Assembly (NCBI RefSeq): GCF_054482525.1
Contig: NZ_CM137006.1
Strand: one strand, 5' to 3'
Length of the DNA stretch: 64,000 bases
The notes below the pieces were generated by a model. It searched no databases. It had not been told where the DNA came from and was given only the letters and a program-made list of their open reading frames with translations. Numbering within the stretch: the stretch's first letter is position 1; the number at the start of each line of letters is the position of its first letter. This document shows positions 46,889 through 58,682 of this stretch, in pieces. The position numbers and the translations under genes were made by a program.

Positions 46889-46964
46889 GCCCGGATAGCT
46901 CAGTCGGTAGAGCAGGGGATTGAAAATCCCCGTGTCCTTGGTTCGATTCCGAGTCCGGGCACCA
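46889..46964 (+). tRNA. pheU: tRNA-Phe (anticodon GAA)
   Basis: 76 nt GCCCGGATAGCTCAGTCGGTAGAGCAGGGGATTGAAAATCCCCGTGTCCTTGGTTCGATTCCGAGTCCGGGCACCA; copy name assumed from position after yjdC. Confidence 0.96.
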
Positions 46965-46973
46965 AATTCATAT

Positions 46974-47001
46974 AAACGGACCTCCACGGAGGTCCGTTTT
47001 T
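46974..47001 (+). terminator. Rho-independent terminator downstream of tRNA-Phe
   Basis: Hairpin aaacggacctccacggaggtccgttttt with a trailing T-run. Confidence 0.85.
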
Positions 47002-47161
47002 CGTTTCAGAACGCCACGATTTAAGCGTTCTGCCTACAAATCAATTCTACCGAACTCAACCAGATTCCCCCCACATCAACCCCATTGTGTGGGTATAATT
47101 GCGGGTATACCCCAGTTCGACAGAATTTGTACCCTCTTTAACGCATTCAGAAGGCTGAACT

Positions 47162-48427
47162 ATGGCACTGACTGACGCAAAAATCCGGGCTGCAAAGCCC
47201 ACTGACAAGGCTTATAAACTCACTGACGGGGCTGGCATGTTCCTGCTGGTACATCCTAATGGTTCCCGTTACTGGCGTCTCCGTTATCGTATTCTGGGTA
47301 AGGAGAAGACTCTGGCACTTGGTGTGTATCCAGAAGTTTCTCTCTCCGAAGCTCGTACAAAACGGGATGAGGCCCGAAAACTGATTTCGGAGGGGATTGA
47401 CCCTTGCGAACAGAAAAGAGCTAAAAAAGTAGTCCCTGATTTACAGCTCTCTTTTGAACATATTGCACGACGCTGGCATGCCAGTAATAAACAATGGGCA
47501 CAATCACACAGCGATAAAGTACTCAAAAGCCTCGAAACACACGTTTTCCCCTTTATCGGCAACCGGGATATCACAACACTCAATACCCCGGATCTGCTTA
47601 TCCCTGTTCGTGCTGCAGAAGCTAAACAAATTTATGAAATCGCCAGTCGTCTGCAGCAAAGAATATCTGCCGTAATGCGTTATGCCGTACAGTCTGGCAT
47701 CATCAGATATAATCCTGCTCTGGATATGGCTGGCGCATTGACTACGGTACAACGCCAGCATCGCCCCGCTCTTGATCTTTCACGTCTGCCTGAACTTCTG
47801 TCGCGTATTAACAGTTATAAAGGTCAGCCTGTCACCCGGCTTGCCGTTATGCTGAATTTACTGGTTTTTATTCGTTCCAGTGAACTCAGATACGCCCGCT
47901 GGTCTGAAATTGATATTGACAATGCCATGTGGACTATTCCAGCCGAACGCAAACCTCTGCCAGGGGTAAAATTCTCACACCGGGGCTCCAAGATGCGAAC
48001 ACCACATCTTGTGCCACTCAGCAAACAGGCTGTAGCCATACTGACAGAACTTCAGACATGGGCTGGTGAAAATGGTCTGATCTTTACGGGAGCACATGAC
48101 CCGCGTAAACCAATCAGTGAAAATACCGTAAATAAGGCCCTCAGAGTGATGGGGTATGACACAACCAAGGAAGTCTGTGGCCATGGATTCCGGGCGATGG
48201 CGTGCAGTGCATTGATTGAATCCGGCTTATGGTCAAGAGATGCGGTTGAACGTCAGATGAGTCATCAGGAGCGCAACGGAGTACGTGCCGCGTATATTCA
48301 TAAAGCAGAACATCTGGAAGAACGTCGGCTTATGCTGCAATGGTGGGCAGATTTTCTGGATGCAAACAGGGAGGAGTGTATCAGTCCGTTTGAATATGCA
48401 AAAGTTAACAATCCACTGAAAAGGTGA
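47162..48427 (+). CDS. int: P4-family tyrosine recombinase (phage-type integrase)
   Basis: 421-aa ORF MALTDAKIRAAKPTDKAYKLTDGAGMFLLVHPNGSRYWRLRYR (typical P4-Int N-terminus); C-terminal catalytic region with HxxR and the conserved tyrosine region. Confidence 0.92.
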   Translation: MALTDAKIRAAKPTDKAYKLTDGAGMFLLVHPNGSRYWRLRYRILGKEKTLALGVYPEVSLSEARTKRDEARKLISEGIDPCEQKRAKKVVPDLQLSFEHIARRWHASNKQWAQSHSDKVLKSLETHVFPFIGNRDITTLNTPDLLIPVRAAEAKQIYEIASRLQQRISAVMRYAVQSGIIRYNPALDMAGALTTVQRQHRPALDLSRLPELLSRINSYKGQPVTRLAVMLNLLVFIRSSELRYARWSEIDIDNAMWTIPAERKPLPGVKFSHRGSKMRTPHLVPLSKQAVAILTELQTWAGENGLIFTGAHDPRKPISENTVNKALRVMGYDTTKEVCGHGFRAMACSALIESGLWSRDAVERQMSHQERNGVRAAYIHKAEHLEERRLMLQWWADFLDANREECISPFEYAKVNNPLKR

Positions 48428-48652
48428 CTGAACGCCATTTACACACATGCTCTTCCTCTTAAGGGGAAGAGCACCCGCCTCAATCAATTTCTTTTTTATG
48501 CCGGCGGAACCATCAGCCAGGCTGAGGTTCTCATTCAATAACTCAACGTCTTACCACAGAACAGAATTCACTGTATTATCATGGGCAACGTTAATCCCGG
48601 ACAATAAAAGGACACCGATGCCAGGCATCACAATTTTTATAGCCTGCAGATT

Positions 48653-49726
48653 ATGGTCCATCCTTTTTTACAGGTTCAGAATATGACTGGCAAATTACGC
48701 TTTGAAGTGAACGATAACCAGGGCTGTTTCATATTTTCGGAAACCTGGTTTGGCTCGTTGCTGGATGAGTTTGAAGAACTGATTGATGCATACGATGCGG
48801 ATGAAATCAGCGAAACAAGTTACATCAACAAACTCAGGCGCCTTGCCCGACAGGAGAATGACTTTATTGATGTACACGCTCACTTGGCATACGTATTTCT
48901 GGAGCAGAATGCCCCGCGTAAGGCGCTGAATGCTGCCCTTAAAGGGCTGGCAGTTGGCAATCGTCTTATCCCTGAAGGTTTCAGTGGCAGAATCATCTGG
49001 ATACATCCTGACAACCGACCTTTTCTTCGTGCCCTCTATGCGGCAATCCTGGCAAATGCACATTTACGGCGTCATCAGGATGCCATCATGCTCATTGAAA
49101 AAATACTGGATTACAATCCCGAAGATAATCATGGTGCACGCTGGCTACTGGGACCGGAACTGTTACGCACTGGCGCTCATGAACAGGCACGCCATATACT
49201 GCAGGAACATGCAGATGAATTTTCACCTTACTGGTATGAACTCGGCCTTCTGCATTTTCTTAATGGGGAACTGGTAAAAGCTGCAACTGCATTTCGTCGC
49301 GGCTTTGCGGCAAATACTTACATCGCAGAAATACTGTGCGGAAATCTGCATCCATTTCCACTTGCTGTATGGCATAACTTTTCAGGCGGTCCGGATACTG
49401 CCGAAGATTATTATGCCACATACCACCCGTTATGGGGGCAATATCCGGAAGCATTGCTGTTTGTAAACTGGCTCTATAATCATTCCTCTGTGCTGCATGA
49501 ACGGGCAGAAATCATTAAATGCGCCGAAATGCTGATGCAGGAAGATGATTTCGAAATATGCGAAAGTATTTTAAGACAGCAGGAGAAGTTGCGTGAAAGA
49601 ATTGATGAGACGCTTTCTGAGAAAATTGTACAGAAATGCAGAAATATGAATGGTGAATATGTCTGGCCCTGGATATTGCCGTTTTCAGCGGCAGGCATGA
49701 AACATACTGGCATACAGTATCAGTAG
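48653..49726 (+). CDS. Hypothetical protein, helical/TPR-like repeats, function unknown
   Basis: 357-aa ORF (alternative start 48683 MTGKLRFEV); TPR-like helical repeat segments (for example WYELGLLHFLNGELVKAATAFRRGF); no catalytic motif recognised. Confidence 0.6.
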   Translation: MVHPFLQVQNMTGKLRFEVNDNQGCFIFSETWFGSLLDEFEELIDAYDADEISETSYINKLRRLARQENDFIDVHAHLAYVFLEQNAPRKALNAALKGLAVGNRLIPEGFSGRIIWIHPDNRPFLRALYAAILANAHLRRHQDAIMLIEKILDYNPEDNHGARWLLGPELLRTGAHEQARHILQEHADEFSPYWYELGLLHFLNGELVKAATAFRRGFAANTYIAEILCGNLHPFPLAVWHNFSGGPDTAEDYYATYHPLWGQYPEALLFVNWLYNHSSVLHERAEIIKCAEMLMQEDDFEICESILRQQEKLRERIDETLSEKIVQKCRNMNGEYVWPWILPFSAAGMKHTGIQYQ

Positions 49727-49797
49727 ATATTGCATTAGTGTATCCTGCACACAAGTAATAATTTATCCACCAATAATAACACTGTTAATGTCCCCTT

Positions 49798-49840
49798 CCC
49801 CTGGTTGTCAGCCAGGGGTTATCTTCTGAATATTTCTTTT
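49798..49840 (+). terminator. Putative intrinsic terminator after the 357-aa ORF
   Basis: Hairpin cccctgg-ttgtcag-ccagggg followed by a T-rich tract (ttatcttctgaatatttctttt). Confidence 0.55.
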
Positions 49841-50085
49841 GAAAAGGATAACACAGTAAATTATTTTTATGAATTATCCCATGGACTCATTAACACCCTT
49901 TCATAATGCTTTATTGTCAAACACGTTATGGCTGACATCAAAAAAAACCGGATTTCCTCTGCCAGCGGGTAATCACCTCCCCGGTGTTTTCGGTTGGTCT
50001 GGTTACTCCTGTCTGGTTATGAGCAAGATAATTGCTATAAACAGTGGAAAACTCATCGTACATAATCTGGTGATGAACATTACGC

Positions 50086-51588
50086 TTATTTTCCCTTGAC
50101 CGGAAGAATCAGAGGCTGCGGTTTCAGACTGTCTGCCGGTACATTCCTCTCTCCGTTAAAAACCATAACGGGTTCATTATCTTCGTCTGTCAGCAGATTG
50201 AATGGCGGTATATTTTCAGTACGAATGCCGGTCAGCCACTGAAAAATACCTGCGAAATGACGGGCACTGATTTTTCTGCTGACGGACTGATGAGACGTGA
50301 TGTCACTGGCGGTAATAATCAGGGGAACGCTGTAGCCTCCCTGCACATGACCATCATGATGAACAGGATTAGCACTGTCGCTGACCGACAGACCATGGTC
50401 AGAAAAGTAAAGCATGGCAAAATGACGGGAATGCCGGCGAAGGATACCATCAAGCTGCCCGAGAAAGTTATCCAGTTTACTGATGCTGGCGAGGTAACAG
50501 GCAATCTTCCGGGGGAACTGCTCCTGGTAATTATTCGGCCAGGAGTGAAGCCGGTCACACGGGTTCGGATGAGACCCCATCATGTGCAGGAATATCACCT
50601 TCGGAGAGGATTTATCCGCCAGCGCACGTTCTGTTTCCTGTAACAACAACATGTCATCCGTTTTACGGGAAGCGAAGCTGCCTTTCTTGAGGAAAACGGT
50701 ATGCTCCGCATCAGAAGCAATAACAGAGATGCGTGTGTCATGCTCTCCCAGTTTTCCCTGATTGGATATCCACCATGTGCTGTATCCTGCTTTTGCTGCC
50801 AGCGCCACCACGTTGTTGCCGGAATCAGGGTTCTGCTCATAGTCATAAATCAGTGTCCGGCTCAGGGAAGGCACAGTACTGGCTGCTGCCGATGTATAGC
50901 CGTCAATAAATAAACCGGGAGCAGTATTCAGCCACGGTGTGGTTGGCACGGGATAGCCATATACCGACATATAATCCCTGCGCACACTCTCACCAGTGAC
51001 GATAACAATCGTGTCATACAACGGTACACCCGGCAGGATTTTCCAGTTGTCAGCCCCGTGCTGATTCAGTTGTTTATAACGCTGCATTTCACGCAATGTG
51101 TCAGTTGTCCCCACAACAGTTCCTTTAACCATCCGCAACGGCCAGCTGTTTACTGAGCATAATACGAACAGCAGCAGTGCCAGCCAGTTACGGTGACCAC
51201 GGCGGTGTGTTCGCCAGAAAATCACCATGAATACCTGAATCGCGGCACTGACCAGAAAATGATAAACAGGAATCATCCCGGTAAACTCCGCTGCCTCATC
51301 AGTTGTGGTCTGCAGCAACGCGACAATAAAACTGTTGTTGATTTTACCGTACGTCATACCGGCAGGCGCATACAGTGCACAACAGAACAGAAATAACAGC
51401 GCTGTAATGGATGTGAGGGTATTTCTGTGTGCAAGGAGCAGAAGAAGGAACAGCAGCAACACATTCCCGGTGGCATTCTTCTCAGTGTATCCGCATGCAA
51501 TTGTGGTTATTGCAGAAACGACAAAAAAGAATAAAAACAATAAAATCCGGGGGGTGTTACCCGGACAAAACAGTTTTCTGATATTCAT
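50086..51588 (-). CDS. Phosphoethanolamine-transferase-like membrane enzyme (sulfatase/alkaline-phosphatase superfamily, EptA/OpgE-like)
   Basis: 500-aa ORF; N-terminal multi-TM region, then a soluble domain with transferase-like motifs (TGESVRRDYMSVYGY and HMMGSHPNP); AT-rich. Confidence 0.7.
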   Translation of the reverse strand: MNIRKLFCPGNTPRILLFLFFFVVSAITTIACGYTEKNATGNVLLLFLLLLLAHRNTLTSITALLFLFCCALYAPAGMTYGKINNSFIVALLQTTTDEAAEFTGMIPVYHFLVSAAIQVFMVIFWRTHRRGHRNWLALLLFVLCSVNSWPLRMVKGTVVGTTDTLREMQRYKQLNQHGADNWKILPGVPLYDTIVIVTGESVRRDYMSVYGYPVPTTPWLNTAPGLFIDGYTSAAASTVPSLSRTLIYDYEQNPDSGNNVVALAAKAGYSTWWISNQGKLGEHDTRISVIASDAEHTVFLKKGSFASRKTDDMLLLQETERALADKSSPKVIFLHMMGSHPNPCDRLHSWPNNYQEQFPRKIACYLASISKLDNFLGQLDGILRRHSRHFAMLYFSDHGLSVSDSANPVHHDGHVQGGYSVPLIITASDITSHQSVSRKISARHFAGIFQWLTGIRTENIPPFNLLTDEDNEPVMVFNGERNVPADSLKPQPLILPVKGK

Positions 51589-51647
51589 CGGAGTATATCG
51601 ACAACATTATTATGAAGAGAACAGGATAATAAAAATCAGAAATTATC

Positions 51648-51692
51648 TGTAAAACAGATAAAAGACAACCCTGCAGTAATAGACTGCAGGGT
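51648..51692 (-). terminator. Putative intrinsic terminator after the outer-membrane protein gene
   Basis: Perfect hairpin accctgcag-taataga-ctgcagggt with a T-run following it on the minus strand. Confidence 0.6.
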
Positions 51693-51769
51693 ATTTCTGT
51701 TTAATTGCAGAAGATATGCAATTATCTTAATTACAGAATATACGCAATTATCGTTCAGGAGCAGTGTCG

Positions 51770-52510
51770 TCAGAAGTTATAAGTCATACCAAGCATGATG
51801 TCATGACTTTTAACATCAACTTCTGACTTATATTTATCGCCCCACTCGTCCTTGTAACTCACACTGCTGTCACCTGCATCAAGATAGCGATAGCTGAGGT
51901 CCAGAGCGATATCCGGGGTTACGTCATAGCGGACACCCGCGCCAAGGCTCCATGCGAAGTTGTCAGCAGAGCCTGAACGTGACAACGATTCGCGACCACT
52001 GCTTCCGTACTCATAATCCCAGGTACTGATACCGGTTGTTTTCTGGTGAATTCTGGCGTAGCCAATCCCTGCGGATACCCATGGTGTGAATGCGCTGTCA
52101 TTCCGGAAGTCATAGTACGCATTCAGCATTAGTGTGTTGACTGACACCTCATTCTTCAGGTCATCACGCCAGTAACCACCTGACCAGCTGTCTTTATCTA
52201 CGTTATACTTCGAATCAGCTTTTCCACGAGCGTAAAACTCCAGTTCTGTTCGAACCGGAATACTGAACTGCGGATAAAAATCATAACCAGCCGCGATACC
52301 ACCACTGAATACCGTATCATGGTCATCGCCGCCTTTATACTTTGACGTTTCTTCCTCATCTCCTGACAGGAAATGCTGGTCTGAAAGTGACACCACAGAG
52401 GTACCGGCTTTACCGGTCAGATAAAAACCGCTTTTACCTTCCTCAGCACCTGCATTTGCTGCAAATACACAGGCTGTGGCCACCACTGAAACAGCAAAAA
52501 CCTTTTTCAT
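51770..52510 (-). CDS. Outer-membrane beta-barrel protein of the Hek/Hra/Tia (opacity-adhesin/invasin-like) family
   Basis: ORF 51770..52525; start MKKVFAVSVVATACVFAANAGA (signal peptide); alternating amphipathic beta-strand pattern; C-terminal barrel signature ending in Phe (LGMTYNF). Confidence 0.65.
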   Translation of the reverse strand: MKKVFAVSVVATACVFAANAGAEEGKSGFYLTGKAGTSVVSLSDQHFLSGDEEETSKYKGGDDHDTVFSGGIAAGYDFYPQFSIPVRTELEFYARGKADSKYNVDKDSWSGGYWRDDLKNEVSVNTLMLNAYYDFRNDSAFTPWVSAGIGYARIHQKTTGISTWDYEYGSSGRESLSRSGSADNFAWSLGAGVRYDVTPDIALDLSYRYLDAGDSSVSYKDEWGDKYKSEVDVKSHDIMLGMTYNF

Positions 52511-52727
52511 TTCAATTATCTCCATTATTGTATCATCATTTTAATATATATTTTTAATATTTAAAAACCGGACTAAAGGCAGCCTCAACACTCCACACTA
52601 CGGAAGCCAGACTTTTACTCTACACAAAATAAATATATCTTCTCAGTGAGGACGTGAACGCCTGTCTGAAATTATGTGAATACAACCTCCCCAGAATACA
52701 AACAGGCAGGGGCACTGGAGTAACCGA

Positions 52728-53096
52728 TCACAATACTTCTGCCTTTTTATATTTTACCGATAATCTCCGTTTAATATAGTTCTTACCGATTTCATAATCG
52801 GGGTTCCATGTAGATAAATTATGAACACCTATTGCTACTGCACTCGCCACTCCCAGAATTACGGTTGGTGACCATAAAGAACCAGCTAAAGCTGTACTCC
52901 TGTACTCAGTATATACACGACAACTTAATTTCGTTTTCTCTATTTCATGCTCCACTCTTTTTACCGTTTCACTAACATCGGAAACATTTTCGATCACAAA
53001 ACTCTTACGTTCATAAATAAGCTTGCTTAATGTATTTATATCTAAAAATTTCGCATCAAAAGAATCAATCTGTACTGTTTTTTCTTGTGCTGACAT
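52728..53096 (-). CDS. Hypothetical protein with a single C-terminal TM helix
   Basis: 122-aa ORF in an AT-rich segment; hydrophobic stretch ALAGSLWSPTVILGVASAVAIGV; no recognisable domain. Confidence 0.45.
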   Translation of the reverse strand: MSAQEKTVQIDSFDAKFLDINTLSKLIYERKSFVIENVSDVSETVKRVEHEIEKTKLSCRVYTEYRSTALAGSLWSPTVILGVASAVAIGVHNLSTWNPDYEIGKNYIKRRLSVKYKKAEVL

Positions 53097-57243: not shown

Positions 57244-57795
57244 TTATGAGCTGACATCATCAAGATGCGCCAGTAATTTTTTATTAATGACTTCAAACAG
57301 TTCCTGTTCATCATGGGTCAGATAATCCCAGATTTCTTTCAGATACATGCTTTGTGCAAGAGTGAGCCTCTGAATAAAAAACATACCTTCAGATGTCAGA
57401 CTGATTTTTTTAGCACGGCGATCCTCCCTGCTATCCATCCTTTTTACATACCCGGCTTTTTCTAAAAAATCTGTAATGCGGGTAATATTAGTTCTGGTAA
57501 ACTGCAGTTTCTGGCTTATCTCTGAAGGTGACAGACAATGACTCTCCGCTGTGAATAATGTGGTGAGAACCATGTACACTGAGTGATTTATTCCATACGC
57601 CCCCAGAAATTCAGATATATTATCCTGCATCCTTTTATTTGCGCGAATACAGAGTTGCATCAACAAATGTTCCTGAAAGGGATATGCGGGGTCTTTGTTT
57701 TTTTGGTGTCTGATTATTTTTTCTAATGTGTCTGTGTTATTCATTTCATTATTCTCCATATTACTGAAACACACTGTCTGTGTACAAGCGCGCAT
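57244..57795 (-). CDS. MarR-family regulator of the PapX/SfaX/FocX type (fimbria-linked motility repressor)
   Basis: 183-aa ORF (true start may be internal, for example MENNEMNNTD); MarR winged-helix region ...TRTNITRITDFLEKAGYVKRMDSREDRRAKKISLT; located at the distal end of the fimbrial operon. Confidence 0.7.
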   Translation of the reverse strand: MRACTQTVCFSNMENNEMNNTDTLEKIIRHQKNKDPAYPFQEHLLMQLCIRANKRMQDNISEFLGAYGINHSVYMVLTTLFTAESHCLSPSEISQKLQFTRTNITRITDFLEKAGYVKRMDSREDRRAKKISLTSEGMFFIQRLTLAQSMYLKEIWDYLTHDEQELFEVINKKLLAHLDDVSS

Positions 57796-57941: not shown

Positions 57942-58682
57942 TTATCCATACTGCTCAGTAATCGCGGATAATTCATCAGCTCCCACACGCCTGTAGAGCC
58001 ATCCCTGACAGCCCTGGACATTCATGTCTCTGGCAATACGGAACAACGCTTCATTTTCAACACCTTCAAGTATTACGCCCCGGTTATGACAGGCAACAGT
58101 GTCTGCCACAGCATGGAGAAGCGGCATTGCACTCCTGTTTTTCAGGGCATAATGAAAAAACTCATGACTTATTTTTACCCGTTCAAACATCCCGGACAGT
58201 CCCCACATTAAGCCTGCATTTCCTGAGCCGAAATCATCCAGCCAGAGGGTGAAACGTTCTGACAAAAAACGTAACAGGGGGTCATCACCGGGTTTTAACG
58301 CCACTGCCGGAAAGTCCTCACTGACCTCAAGCCTGATATGTGTTCCCGGCCGCCCCGGGATGCCATGTTTTCTCAGATACAGGGCTACCACCCGGGAAAT
58401 ATTGACACTCAGCATTATTTTCTTCTGCAGACACCATTTATGAAGCGTTTCAGCAGTCTTCAGCTGACTGATGAGTATTTTGTACTGAATATCCGGAGGC
58501 GCACTTCTGAAAAAAACAGATGCGCAGATTTTCCTCCCGTCTTTTGCTGAACGGATATCCGAGAGCATTTCAAAAGCAAATATTTTCCCGGTCTGATTCC
58601 ATACAGGCTCAAAAACCGGTGAGAGGATATATTCTGTTCTGCCTGATTTCACCTCCAGTATACTGTTAACTGCCCCTGACAT
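57942..58682 (-). CDS. Stand-alone EAL-domain protein (SfaY/FocY-like putative c-di-GMP phosphodiesterase)
   Basis: 246-aa ORF with EAL-domain motifs (EML in place of EAL, LWLDDFGSG, ILEGVENE, QGCQGW); between the adhesin gene and the MarR gene. Confidence 0.7.
   Translation of the reverse strand: MSGAVNSILEVKSGRTEYILSPVFEPVWNQTGKIFAFEMLSDIRSAKDGRKICASVFFRSAPPDIQYKILISQLKTAETLHKWCLQKKIMLSVNISRVVALYLRKHGIPGRPGTHIRLEVSEDFPAVALKPGDDPLLRFLSERFTLWLDDFGSGNAGLMWGLSGMFERVKISHEFFHYALKNRSAMPLLHAVADTVACHNRGVILEGVENEALFRIARDMNVQGCQGWLYRRVGADELSAITEQYG

Follow-up and report, generated by a model that had tools for sequence, protein, structure and literature searches.

Does an island-borne phosphoethanolamine (PEtN) transferase gene of E. 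coli act on lipid A, in the manner of EptA and MCR-1, or on another component of the envelope? The question is raised by an open reading frame near one end of a genomic island in the window (the whole stretch of DNA analysed, 64,000 nucleotides). The 500-aa ORF named in the preliminary description was found at exactly 50086-51588 on the minus strand, with an ATG start and no internal stop codons. The RefSeq CDS WP_001547322.1, annotated 'phosphoethanolamine transferase', is 100% identical to it.

An intact yjgX-type gene at the integrase end of a tRNA-Phe island

The gene was compared with yjgX of K-12 (b4575, 'putative phosphoethanolamine transferase YjgX'), a pseudogene with 91.5% nucleotide identity to it across 79% of the gene. 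Both belong to the same family, and each has a P4-type integrase and a tRNA gene (leuX in K-12) beside it. The K-12 copy has lost its N-terminus and carries a frameshift and an internal stop, whereas the window copy is intact. Judged by this comparison, the window gene is the intact form of yjgX. The yjgX family is widespread and already annotated, and the gene is no new find. Of 5426 complete E. coli genomes, 2974 gave a yjgX-type match, and in 1450 (about 27%) the match covers 80% of the gene or more. YjgX/YhbX-type genes at pheU, pheV and selC islands have already been reported (PMC6174562). A 'putative opgE' has likewise been noted next to integrases in the vicinity of pap islands, and the pap islands with which the gene travels show an association with bacteraemia of urinary source (PMC8946752).

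The attachment site of the island is a tRNA-Phe gene in the pheU position (46889-46964, plus strand; ARAGORN). It is adjoined by the gene for the island's P4-type tyrosine integrase (47162-48427, plus strand; NCBIfam PRK09692, 254 bits), which also carries an integrase annotation, and the dcuA-cutA-dsbD-yjdC backbone lies upstream of both. The claimed island location is borne out by this arrangement. The accompanying claim of AT-richness is only weakly true, the GC content of the ORF being 48.9%, compared with 52.2% in the backbone and 46.1% across the whole island. A further ORF at 48653-49726 (plus strand) encodes a TPR-like hypothetical protein of 357 aa, whose presence in the island-border module is optional. 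It is annotated 'tetratricopeptide repeat protein' in STEC1588 and is absent from L097 and L098. This protein was considered as the counterpart of a 358-aa neighbour in Salmonella, and the two were found to be unrelated on comparison.

Domain architecture and catalytic residues

The protein consists of an N-terminal membrane domain and a sulfatase-type catalytic domain, as had been described from the letters of the DNA. The membrane domain (residues 14-145; 51154-51549, minus strand) has five TM helices by hydropathy and in the AlphaFold model (pLDDT 86.9), where they span residues 14-31, 39-53, 57-80, 108-127 and 135-145; two short periplasmic helices (residues 85-104) are located between TM3 and TM4. 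A weak Pfam match to EptA_B_N covers residues 44-146 (E 1e-4). Since the positive residues are concentrated at the N-terminus and in the loops at 54-56 and 127-133, the catalytic domain would be periplasmic by the positive-inside rule. This domain (residues 193-446; 50251-51012, minus strand) matches Pfam Sulfatase PF00884 with E 1.4e-37. The top PDB sequence match is the catalytic domain of E. coli EptC (5zzu, 4.6e-18). Foldseek retrieved EcEptC (best 6a82), full-length MCR-1 (9nww) and NmEptA (5fgn) as top matches, and the alignments with 9nww and 5fgn span the full length. EptA and MCR-1 share with the window protein both the fold, in which a catalytic domain follows five TM helices, and the Thr/Glu/Asp/His set.

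The catalytic set is complete, comprising E200, T238, H335, H340, D397, H398 and H411. The codons, all on the minus strand, were located and checked for the predicted nucleophile T238 (50875-50877), the predicted Zn ligand E200 in a GES motif (50989-50991), the predicted Zn ligands D397-H398 in an FSDHG motif (50395-50400) and the HMMGSH motif (residues 335-340; 50569-50586), which holds the conserved active-site His pair H335 and H340. In the alignment with MCR-1, T238 corresponds to T285, E200 to E246, D397/H398 to D465/H466 and H335/H340 to the HxxxxH pair (MCR-1 numbering for T285, E246, D465 and H466). T238 is also aligned with the EptC threonine. Six of these residues (E200, T238, H335, H340, D397 and H398) do not vary among 28 family members or among the five K-12 paralogues, and H411 is nearly invariant across the same proteins.

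The preliminary description had also pointed to YGY and HMMGSH motifs, and YGY is present at residues 210-212. It had proposed a PEtN transferase of the EptA/MCR/OpgE superfamily, shorter than the chromosomal enzymes. The fold and the conserved catalytic residues agree with the first proposal, the nucleophile and metal ligands all being in place, and the length of 500 aa agrees with the second (547, 563 and 577 aa for K-12 EptA, EptB and EptC).

OpgE is the closest K-12 paralogue

To place the protein within the superfamily, it was compared with the five K-12 paralogues by BLASTP. The scores were 233 bits for OpgE, 107 for YhbX, 100 for EptC, 56 for EptB and 45 for EptA. OpgE identity is 30% over residues 20-492, which is full length with the membrane domain included, and falls to 24% with EptC and to 21% over 237 residues with EptA. 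By these scores OpgE is by far the closest K-12 paralogue. In a neighbour-joining tree, the YjgX clade is nested as a separate clade in an OpgE-like group, with YhbX, EptC, EptB and EptA outside; sequences of Lpt3, Lpt6, PetG and PptA were outside the comparison set used for this OpgE placement. Within the superfamily the protein groups with OpgE and stands furthest from EptA/MCR. Unnamed matches in AFDB from Haemophilus, Pasteurella and Neisseria are 27-29% identical and no closer than OpgE, and no Neisseria matches surfaced in the plasmid collection.

OpgE (YbiP) is also the closest characterised relative, with the same architecture, catalytic residues and tree branch. By position and by 30% identity, though, the window gene is not an OpgE orthologue: opgE belongs to the core genome, where ompX lies downstream of it (convergent) and mntS/mntR upstream, whereas the window gene is cargo of the pheU island. 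The window protein is 27 aa shorter than OpgE, and at this level of identity the acceptor may differ.

The first alternative to an OpgE-like enzyme is a transferase acting on lipid A, Kdo or heptose phosphate (EptA/MCR/EptB/EptC-like), which would raise polymyxin and cationic-peptide resistance by lowering the negative charge. Some sources do call the homologues 'lipid A phosphoethanolamine transferase', and the superfamily and catalytic residues are held in common. The best named NCBIfam model is likewise the CptA subfamily (PRK10649). Its score of 112.2 bits, however, is below the curated cut-off of 404, and every other NCBIfam score is also far under its cut-off: 86.5 bits against 900 for the CptA domain model, 39.8-72.5 against 500-660 for the EptA models (72 against 500 for the lipid A domain model) and 18-32 against 1225-1250 for the MCR models. 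EptC/CptA, the heptose-I phosphate PEtN transferase, has the solved structures that match the catalytic domain best but lies outside the OpgE-like branch. EptB and EptA are the most distant K-12 paralogues, EptA being the furthest of all. Scans for PmrA and PhoP boxes with at most two mismatches gave zero matches in the upstream region (51589-51770), and the counts of such sites across the whole window were no higher than in shuffled sequences. Some 27% of complete E. coli genomes have an intact copy, although colistin susceptibility is the norm in E. coli that lacks mcr. The whole of this alternative is unlikely, and so is a colistin-resistance gene; a polymyxin or lipid A role would be the least likely outcome, because the protein belongs with OpgE and lies furthest from EptA/MCR. 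The gene is common on ExPEC/STEC islands, and it should not be mistaken for a cryptic colistin determinant of the mcr type.

Proposed reaction and acceptor

The gene probably encodes a functional inner-membrane PEtN transferase that belongs, within the alkaline-phosphatase superfamily, to the OpgE-like branch; its acceptor would most likely be a sugar of an envelope glycan and not the phosphates of lipid A. We infer the catalytic chemistry, the phosphatidylethanolamine donor and the acceptor class from the relatives of the protein as follows. The five TM helices would anchor the enzyme and, by homology, take phosphatidylethanolamine from the outer leaflet of the inner membrane. A periplasmic Zn site formed by E200, D397 and H398, helped by H335, H340 and H411, is predicted to activate T238. 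The threonine would then take PEtN as a covalent intermediate with release of diacylglycerol, and PEtN would be handed to a hydroxyl of an acceptor on the periplasmic face; the likeliest acceptors are sugars in the LPS core/outer core or in osmoregulated periplasmic glucans (OPGs).

The preference for a sugar of the envelope, in the LPS core or a periplasmic glucan, over lipid A follows from the closeness of OpgE together with the setting of the Acinetobacter homologues. Seven Acinetobacter species encode homologues with 33-36% identity in the order glnE-ilvE-orf-[gene]-polysaccharide deacetylase-GT4. The lipooligosaccharide outer-core locus occupies this position. In the NJ tree these homologues are nearer to the YjgX clade than the OpgE orthologues are. 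The A. baumannii K-locus gene named pet1, whose role is putative (PMC9676051), encodes a product 34% identical to the window protein. The Acinetobacter homologues and Pet1 show their identity over the full length, but they are chromosomal and lie inside glycan-synthesis loci. What they offer on the acceptor are clues from gene context. The nearest relatives act on envelope glycans or are encoded with them.

OpgE itself has been shown experimentally to be the PEtN transferase of OPGs (PMC3818809). The OpgE homologues PtdA and PtdB of H. ducreyi belong to an organism without OPGs, and their targets have not been identified (PMC4406763). Because PtdA/PtdB act in OPG-free H. ducreyi, 30% identity to OpgE leaves the acceptor unfixed. 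The experimental data on YjgX come from the K-12 pseudogene, which a defensin screen picked up as a false positive (PMC4808223). The acceptor is a legitimate but modest question in envelope biology. If it were defined, the list of PEtN-modified structures on the E. coli surface would grow by one, and recognition by serum, phage or antibody might be affected.

Two other relationships were examined and rejected. Opt/Lpt-O of Shigella flexneri is a plasmid-borne, horizontally acquired O-antigen PEtN transferase of about 500 aa (PMC3728103), and the window gene resembles it in acquisition and in size. Opt from pSFxv_2, which is annotated as an LTA-synthase-family protein, showed no detectable similarity to the window protein (BLASTP E 0.85). 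Carriage by phages, and with it lysogenic conversion, was set aside when the phage collection gave distant matches only (24-29% identity, 47-55% coverage); several of these are Salmonella genome contigs annotated as arylsulfatase, and the PHROG matches are to families without known function.

Linkage to the Tia/Hek-type outer-membrane gene

The usual upstream neighbour of the yjgX-type gene, at 51770-52525 on the minus strand, encodes an eight-stranded outer-membrane protein of the Tia/Hek family (Pfam OMP_b-brl, 1.5e-20) that is 63% identical to an annotated Tia. It lies directly upstream and on the same strand in all annotated E. coli copies inspected except that of K-12, in which the corresponding side of yjgX is disrupted by an IS. 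At megablast level, at least 80% of both genes is held by 1077 of the 5426 complete genomes, that is by 1077 of the 1450 with a near-complete yjgX-type gene. A homologous pair is also adjacent in Salmonella, with identities of 52% and 58%.

Could the two genes work together? In one form of the idea, the enzyme would partner the adjacent adhesin by placing PEtN on it, in the way that PptA modifies pilin and C. jejuni EptC modifies FlgG, or on the surrounding LPS, and the two genes would form a surface-conversion cassette at the border of the island. PEtN transferases directed at proteins do exist (PMC10525099), and the adjacency in E. coli and Salmonella speaks for a partnership. Against it, a terminator-like hairpin with a 10-bp stem and a T-run (51668-51692, minus strand) is found at the end of the outer-membrane gene, followed by a separate promoter-like site, the best sigma-70-like match by consensus alone (TTTACA-16-TATTAT, 10 of 12; 51626-51653, minus strand), about 38 nt upstream of the yjgX-type ATG. 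The hairpin between the genes suggests that they are separate transcription units. The next-nearest relatives, at the P0017, P0021 and P0022 loci, and a 53%-identical plasmid paralogue lack the pairing, and Tia/Hek adjacency was seen at none of 80 more distant loci. Shared inheritance in one island backbone would account for the linkage without a functional tie. A partnership of this kind is very unlikely. The broader proposal, in which many unrelated islands of E. coli and Salmonella carry at their integrase end a functional 'surface-conversion' cassette made up of a Tia/Hek-type and an OpgE-like gene, with an enzyme acting on a non-OPG acceptor, is improbable as well, if slightly less so. 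It likens the island-end pair to the serotype-converting genes of temperate phages, which adjoin int/attP. If it were true, adhesion and serum or phage sensitivity would be altered by the enzyme.

Under the cassette proposal the acceptor might be a sugar of the LPS outer core, of the O-antigen or of the capsule, or else the adhesin. An obligate pairing of outer-membrane protein and PEtN transferase was rejected, as it holds in E. coli and Salmonella and fails at the other loci just named, and the association is treated here as backbone linkage. The adjacency of ompX and opgE, which is real across Enterobacteriaceae, was considered as a parallel and discarded; those genes are convergent, Tia/Hek proteins are outside the OmpX family, and the resemblance is probably coincidence.

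Selection on intact alleles and decay of the gene

Truncated, frameshifted or IS-disrupted copies of yjgX are present in K-12 and in many other genomes. As about half of the matching E. coli genomes hold truncated copies only, the function is dispensable. Among intact E. coli alleles, dN/dS is 0.11-0.20 at dS 0.10-0.22, values which indicate that these alleles are under purifying selection. That the gene is a dispensable hitch-hiker of the integrase-proximal backbone, devoid of current function and becoming a pseudogene as in K-12, is a most improbable reading: just 1450 of the 2974 matching genomes retain at least 80% of the gene and its ATG has no strong Shine-Dalgarno sequence in front, but the window copy is full length with all catalytic residues kept, has a good promoter-like site upstream and belongs to a set of intact alleles with low dN/dS. 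A functional OpgE-like transferase remains the preferred reading. Roughly one in four complete E. coli genomes has an intact copy, and the pathogenicity islands that carry it are unrelated apart from the conserved integrase end where the gene sits. A match on a 6.6-kb E. coli plasmid (H26, 44% identity), considered as a distinct gene, proved to be a frameshifted, IS-disrupted copy of the module formed by the outer-membrane gene and yjgX.

Architecture and catalytic residues of the window protein

The yjgX-type gene (50086-51588, minus strand) is an uninterrupted ORF of 500 codons with an ATG start. The following features ascribed to it in the preliminary description were found: the motifs YGY (residues 210-212) and HMMGSH (335-340), an N-terminal multi-TM part and a sulfatase-type domain. 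In Pfam searches, residues 193-446 matched Sulfatase (PF00884, E 1.4e-37) and residues 44-146 weakly matched the membrane domain of EptA/EptB (PF08019, E 1e-4). Hydropathy and an AlphaFold model based on an alignment of 28 sequences (mean pLDDT 86.9, pTM 0.75) agree on five TM helices (14-31, 39-53, 57-80, 108-127 and 135-145), on two short helices between TM3 and TM4 (85-104) and on a long helix (149-177) that joins the membrane part to the globular domain. Basic residues are concentrated near the N-terminus and in the loops joining TM2 to TM3 and TM4 to TM5, which, by the positive-inside rule, argues for a periplasmic catalytic domain. On the opposite strand, a 76-aa ORF (49869-50099, plus strand; RefSeq 'hypothetical protein', WP_001327330.1) overlaps the 3' end of the gene by 14 nt; its STEC1588 counterpart carries a frameshift, and the ORF is probably spurious.

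Absence of the nucleophile and metal ligands had been named as grounds for rejecting the assignment; the full set is present and aligns with MCR-1. Among PDB sequences searched with phmmer, the catalytic domain of E. coli EptC (5zzu) scored 4.6e-18 and MCR-1 about 1e-4. In the phmmer alignment T238 falls on T285 of MCR-1, E200 (in GES) on E246, HMMGSH on the His pair of HQMGNH and FSDHG on D465/H466, with MCR-1 numbered as in the literature on that enzyme. E200, T238, H335, H340, D397 and H398 are invariant, and H411 nearly so, in an alignment of 28 family members of 28-93% identity; the same six are invariant across the window protein and K-12 OpgE, YhbX, EptC, EptB and EptA. Foldseek comparison of the model with the PDB placed EcEptC (6a82, E 8e-19) first, followed by full-length MCR-1 (9nww) and NmEptA (5fgn) over 541-553 columns, i.e. 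both domains.

The window protein groups with OpgE

The top named NCBIfam model was the CptA subfamily, at 112 bits against a curated cut-off of 404, and the EptA and MCR models gave 18-72 bits against cut-offs of 500-1250. Since every NCBIfam score lay far under its cut-off, the protein was compared directly by BLASTP with the five K-12 paralogues. OpgE scored highest (233 bits, 30% identity over residues 20-492, including the membrane domain), followed by YhbX (107 bits, 32% over 245 residues), EptC (100 bits, 24% over 525), EptB (56 bits, 24% over 268) and EptA (45 bits, 21% over 237). Scanning one genome per species yielded 475 relatives; of the 80 best, about 45 are genuine opgE orthologues, recognized by a convergent ompX just downstream, and the mntR, rhtA and dps flanks of opgE were confirmed in Citrobacter and K-12. 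In a neighbor-joining tree the window protein and its 50-94% relatives from E. coli, Salmonella, IncF/I plasmids and Erwinia are nested inside the OpgE-like group, with YhbX, EptC, EptB and EptA outside. Identification as a phosphoethanolamine (PEtN) transferase holds at the level of the EptA/MCR/OpgE superfamily, and the placement is corrected: the protein belongs to the YjgX family and is an OpgE-like, probably sugar-directed PEtN transferase rather than a lipid A enzyme like EptA or MCR. Kinship with Shigella Opt/Lpt-O, suspected from size and mobility, was rejected, the two being unrelated in sequence comparison.

A paralogue of 511 aa that shares 53% identity with the window protein lies on the E. 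coli IncFIB/IncI plasmid NZ_CP027463.1 (L005:5920-7455) and on many STEC plasmids. These are large conjugative plasmids, on which it neighbors a DUF2569 gene and an S6-family serine protease autotransporter gene. A cptA-like gene is separately present on pO157-type plasmids.

Acceptor of the PEtN group

PEtN substitution of osmoregulated periplasmic glucans (OPGs) is made by OpgE, the +123 Da being lost in ybiP mutants and restored by a plasmid copy (PMC3818809). Likeness to OpgE alone does not fix the acceptor, because its homologues PtdA and PtdB act in H. ducreyi, an organism without OPGs, where they do not modify lipid A (PMC4406763). In seven Acinetobacter species (L018:3833-9245, L019, L023, L028, L033, L051, L052) a homologue of 33-36% identity lies in the order glnE-ilvE-orf-[gene]-polysaccharide deacetylase-GT4 glycosyltransferase; in the tree these homologues are nearer to the window clade than the opgE orthologues are. 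In Acinetobacter this arrangement corresponds to the lipooligosaccharide outer-core locus, which suggests that the outer core may be decorated with PEtN in those seven species, a modification unreported so far.

Foldseek searches of the AlphaFold database also returned the A. baumannii capsule-locus protein Pet1 (34% identity), the role of which is not established as yet (PMC9676051), and unnamed Haemophilus, Pasteurella and Neisseria proteins (27-29%), some of which may be Lpt3, Lpt6 or PetG, enzymes that act on core sugars. The two context clues, the Acinetobacter locus and Pet1, point to envelope sugars as acceptor; the branch holding the window protein looks sugar-directed, and lipid A is its least likely acceptor. 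A scan of the 181-bp upstream region, allowing up to 2 mismatches, found no match to a PmrA or PhoP box, which speaks weakly against the regulation typical of eptA and cptA.

Distribution and integrity of yjgX

The gene is already known and annotated, and it occurs widely at island borders. An identical protein, WP_001547322.1, is named "phosphoethanolamine transferase" in RefSeq. By megablast, 2974 of 5426 complete E. coli genomes match the gene, at up to five places per genome and almost all chromosomal; 1450 hold at least 80% of the gene. Roughly half of the matching genomes keep fragments only, and the function is therefore conditionally dispensable. The K-12 match is the yjgX pseudogene adjoining leuX and its integrase; its annotation records a frameshift, an internal stop and the loss of the N-terminus, and IS2 and transposase remnants flank it. 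Functional data are restricted to this pseudogene, which came up as a false positive when genes were screened with a defensin (PMC4808223). In LEE-negative STEC, the putative PEtN transferases YjgX or YhbX were found at every pheU, pheV and selC insertion site that was analysed (PMC6174562). In a bacteraemia GWAS, "putative opgE" genes beside integrases and at most 15 kb from the pap operon were associated with a urinary portal of entry (PMC8946752).

The window copy is probably functional, judging from its full length, its complete set of catalytic residues and the low dN/dS (0.11-0.20, at dS 0.10-0.22) among three intact E. coli alleles. Its Shine-Dalgarno sequence is poor.

The island border and the Tia/Hek-type neighbor

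Horizontal acquisition had been proposed from an AT-rich composition and an island location. The location stands, and the gene is only slightly AT-rich, its GC content of 48.9% lying between that of the backbone (52.2%) and that of the island (46.1%). At the island edge, backbone dcuA-cutA-dsbD-yjdC is followed by tRNA-Phe (46889-46964) and a P4-type integrase (47162-48427); the remainder of the window contains IS remnants and S-fimbrial genes. The order tRNA, P4-type integrase, optional 357-aa TPR-like gene, yjgX and Tia/Hek-type outer-membrane protein (OMP) gene, spanning 46889-52525 here, was the same in all annotated copies inspected except K-12. The module is common to islands at pheU, pheV and leuX with entirely different cargo. 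Past it lie sfa fimbriae in the window and ST80, ato genes in STEC1588, genes for sugar catabolism in an isolate from a pig, genes for TerB and an ATPase in one from CSF, and papG-II in HM670.

The neighbor (51770-52525, minus strand) encodes an OMP_b-brl protein that shares 63% identity with an annotated Tia. Of the 5426 genomes, 1077 contain at least 80% of the gene pair, and a Salmonella island retains it (enzyme 58%, OMP 52% identity). The pairing is absent from three other 50-58% relatives, the 53% plasmid paralogue and 80 distant loci, and in the window the two genes are separated by a terminator-like hairpin with a 10-bp stem (51668-51692) and by the region's best promoter-like match (51626-51653). 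The pair is therefore regarded as island backbone inherited together, a functional tie keeping a small residual probability. A second small beta-barrel OMP gene adjoining an OpgE-like gene is ompX, which converges on opgE, 48 bp away in K-12 (L090:12283-14430), constantly over about 45 Enterobacteriaceae loci (L020-L087). The likeness to the island pair is probably coincidence, as family and orientation differ.

Just past the OMP gene, a 122-aa ORF (52728-53096, minus strand; RefSeq hypothetical, WP_001275822.1) has 34.7% GC and no family match. At the end of the S-fimbrial cluster lie open genes for a 183-aa MarR/MprA-like regulator (57244-57795, minus strand) and a 246-aa EAL-domain protein (57942-58682, minus strand; RefSeq match named sfaY); the matching CDSs of the ST80 copy at pheV are marked frameshifted. 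The 6.6-kb non-mobilisable E. coli plasmid pB16EC0876-3 (L003) consists for the most part of a degraded OMP-gene and yjgX module, fragments of helicase and nuclease genes and an IS21-family element; it resembles a piece of an island that was excised or wrongly assembled.
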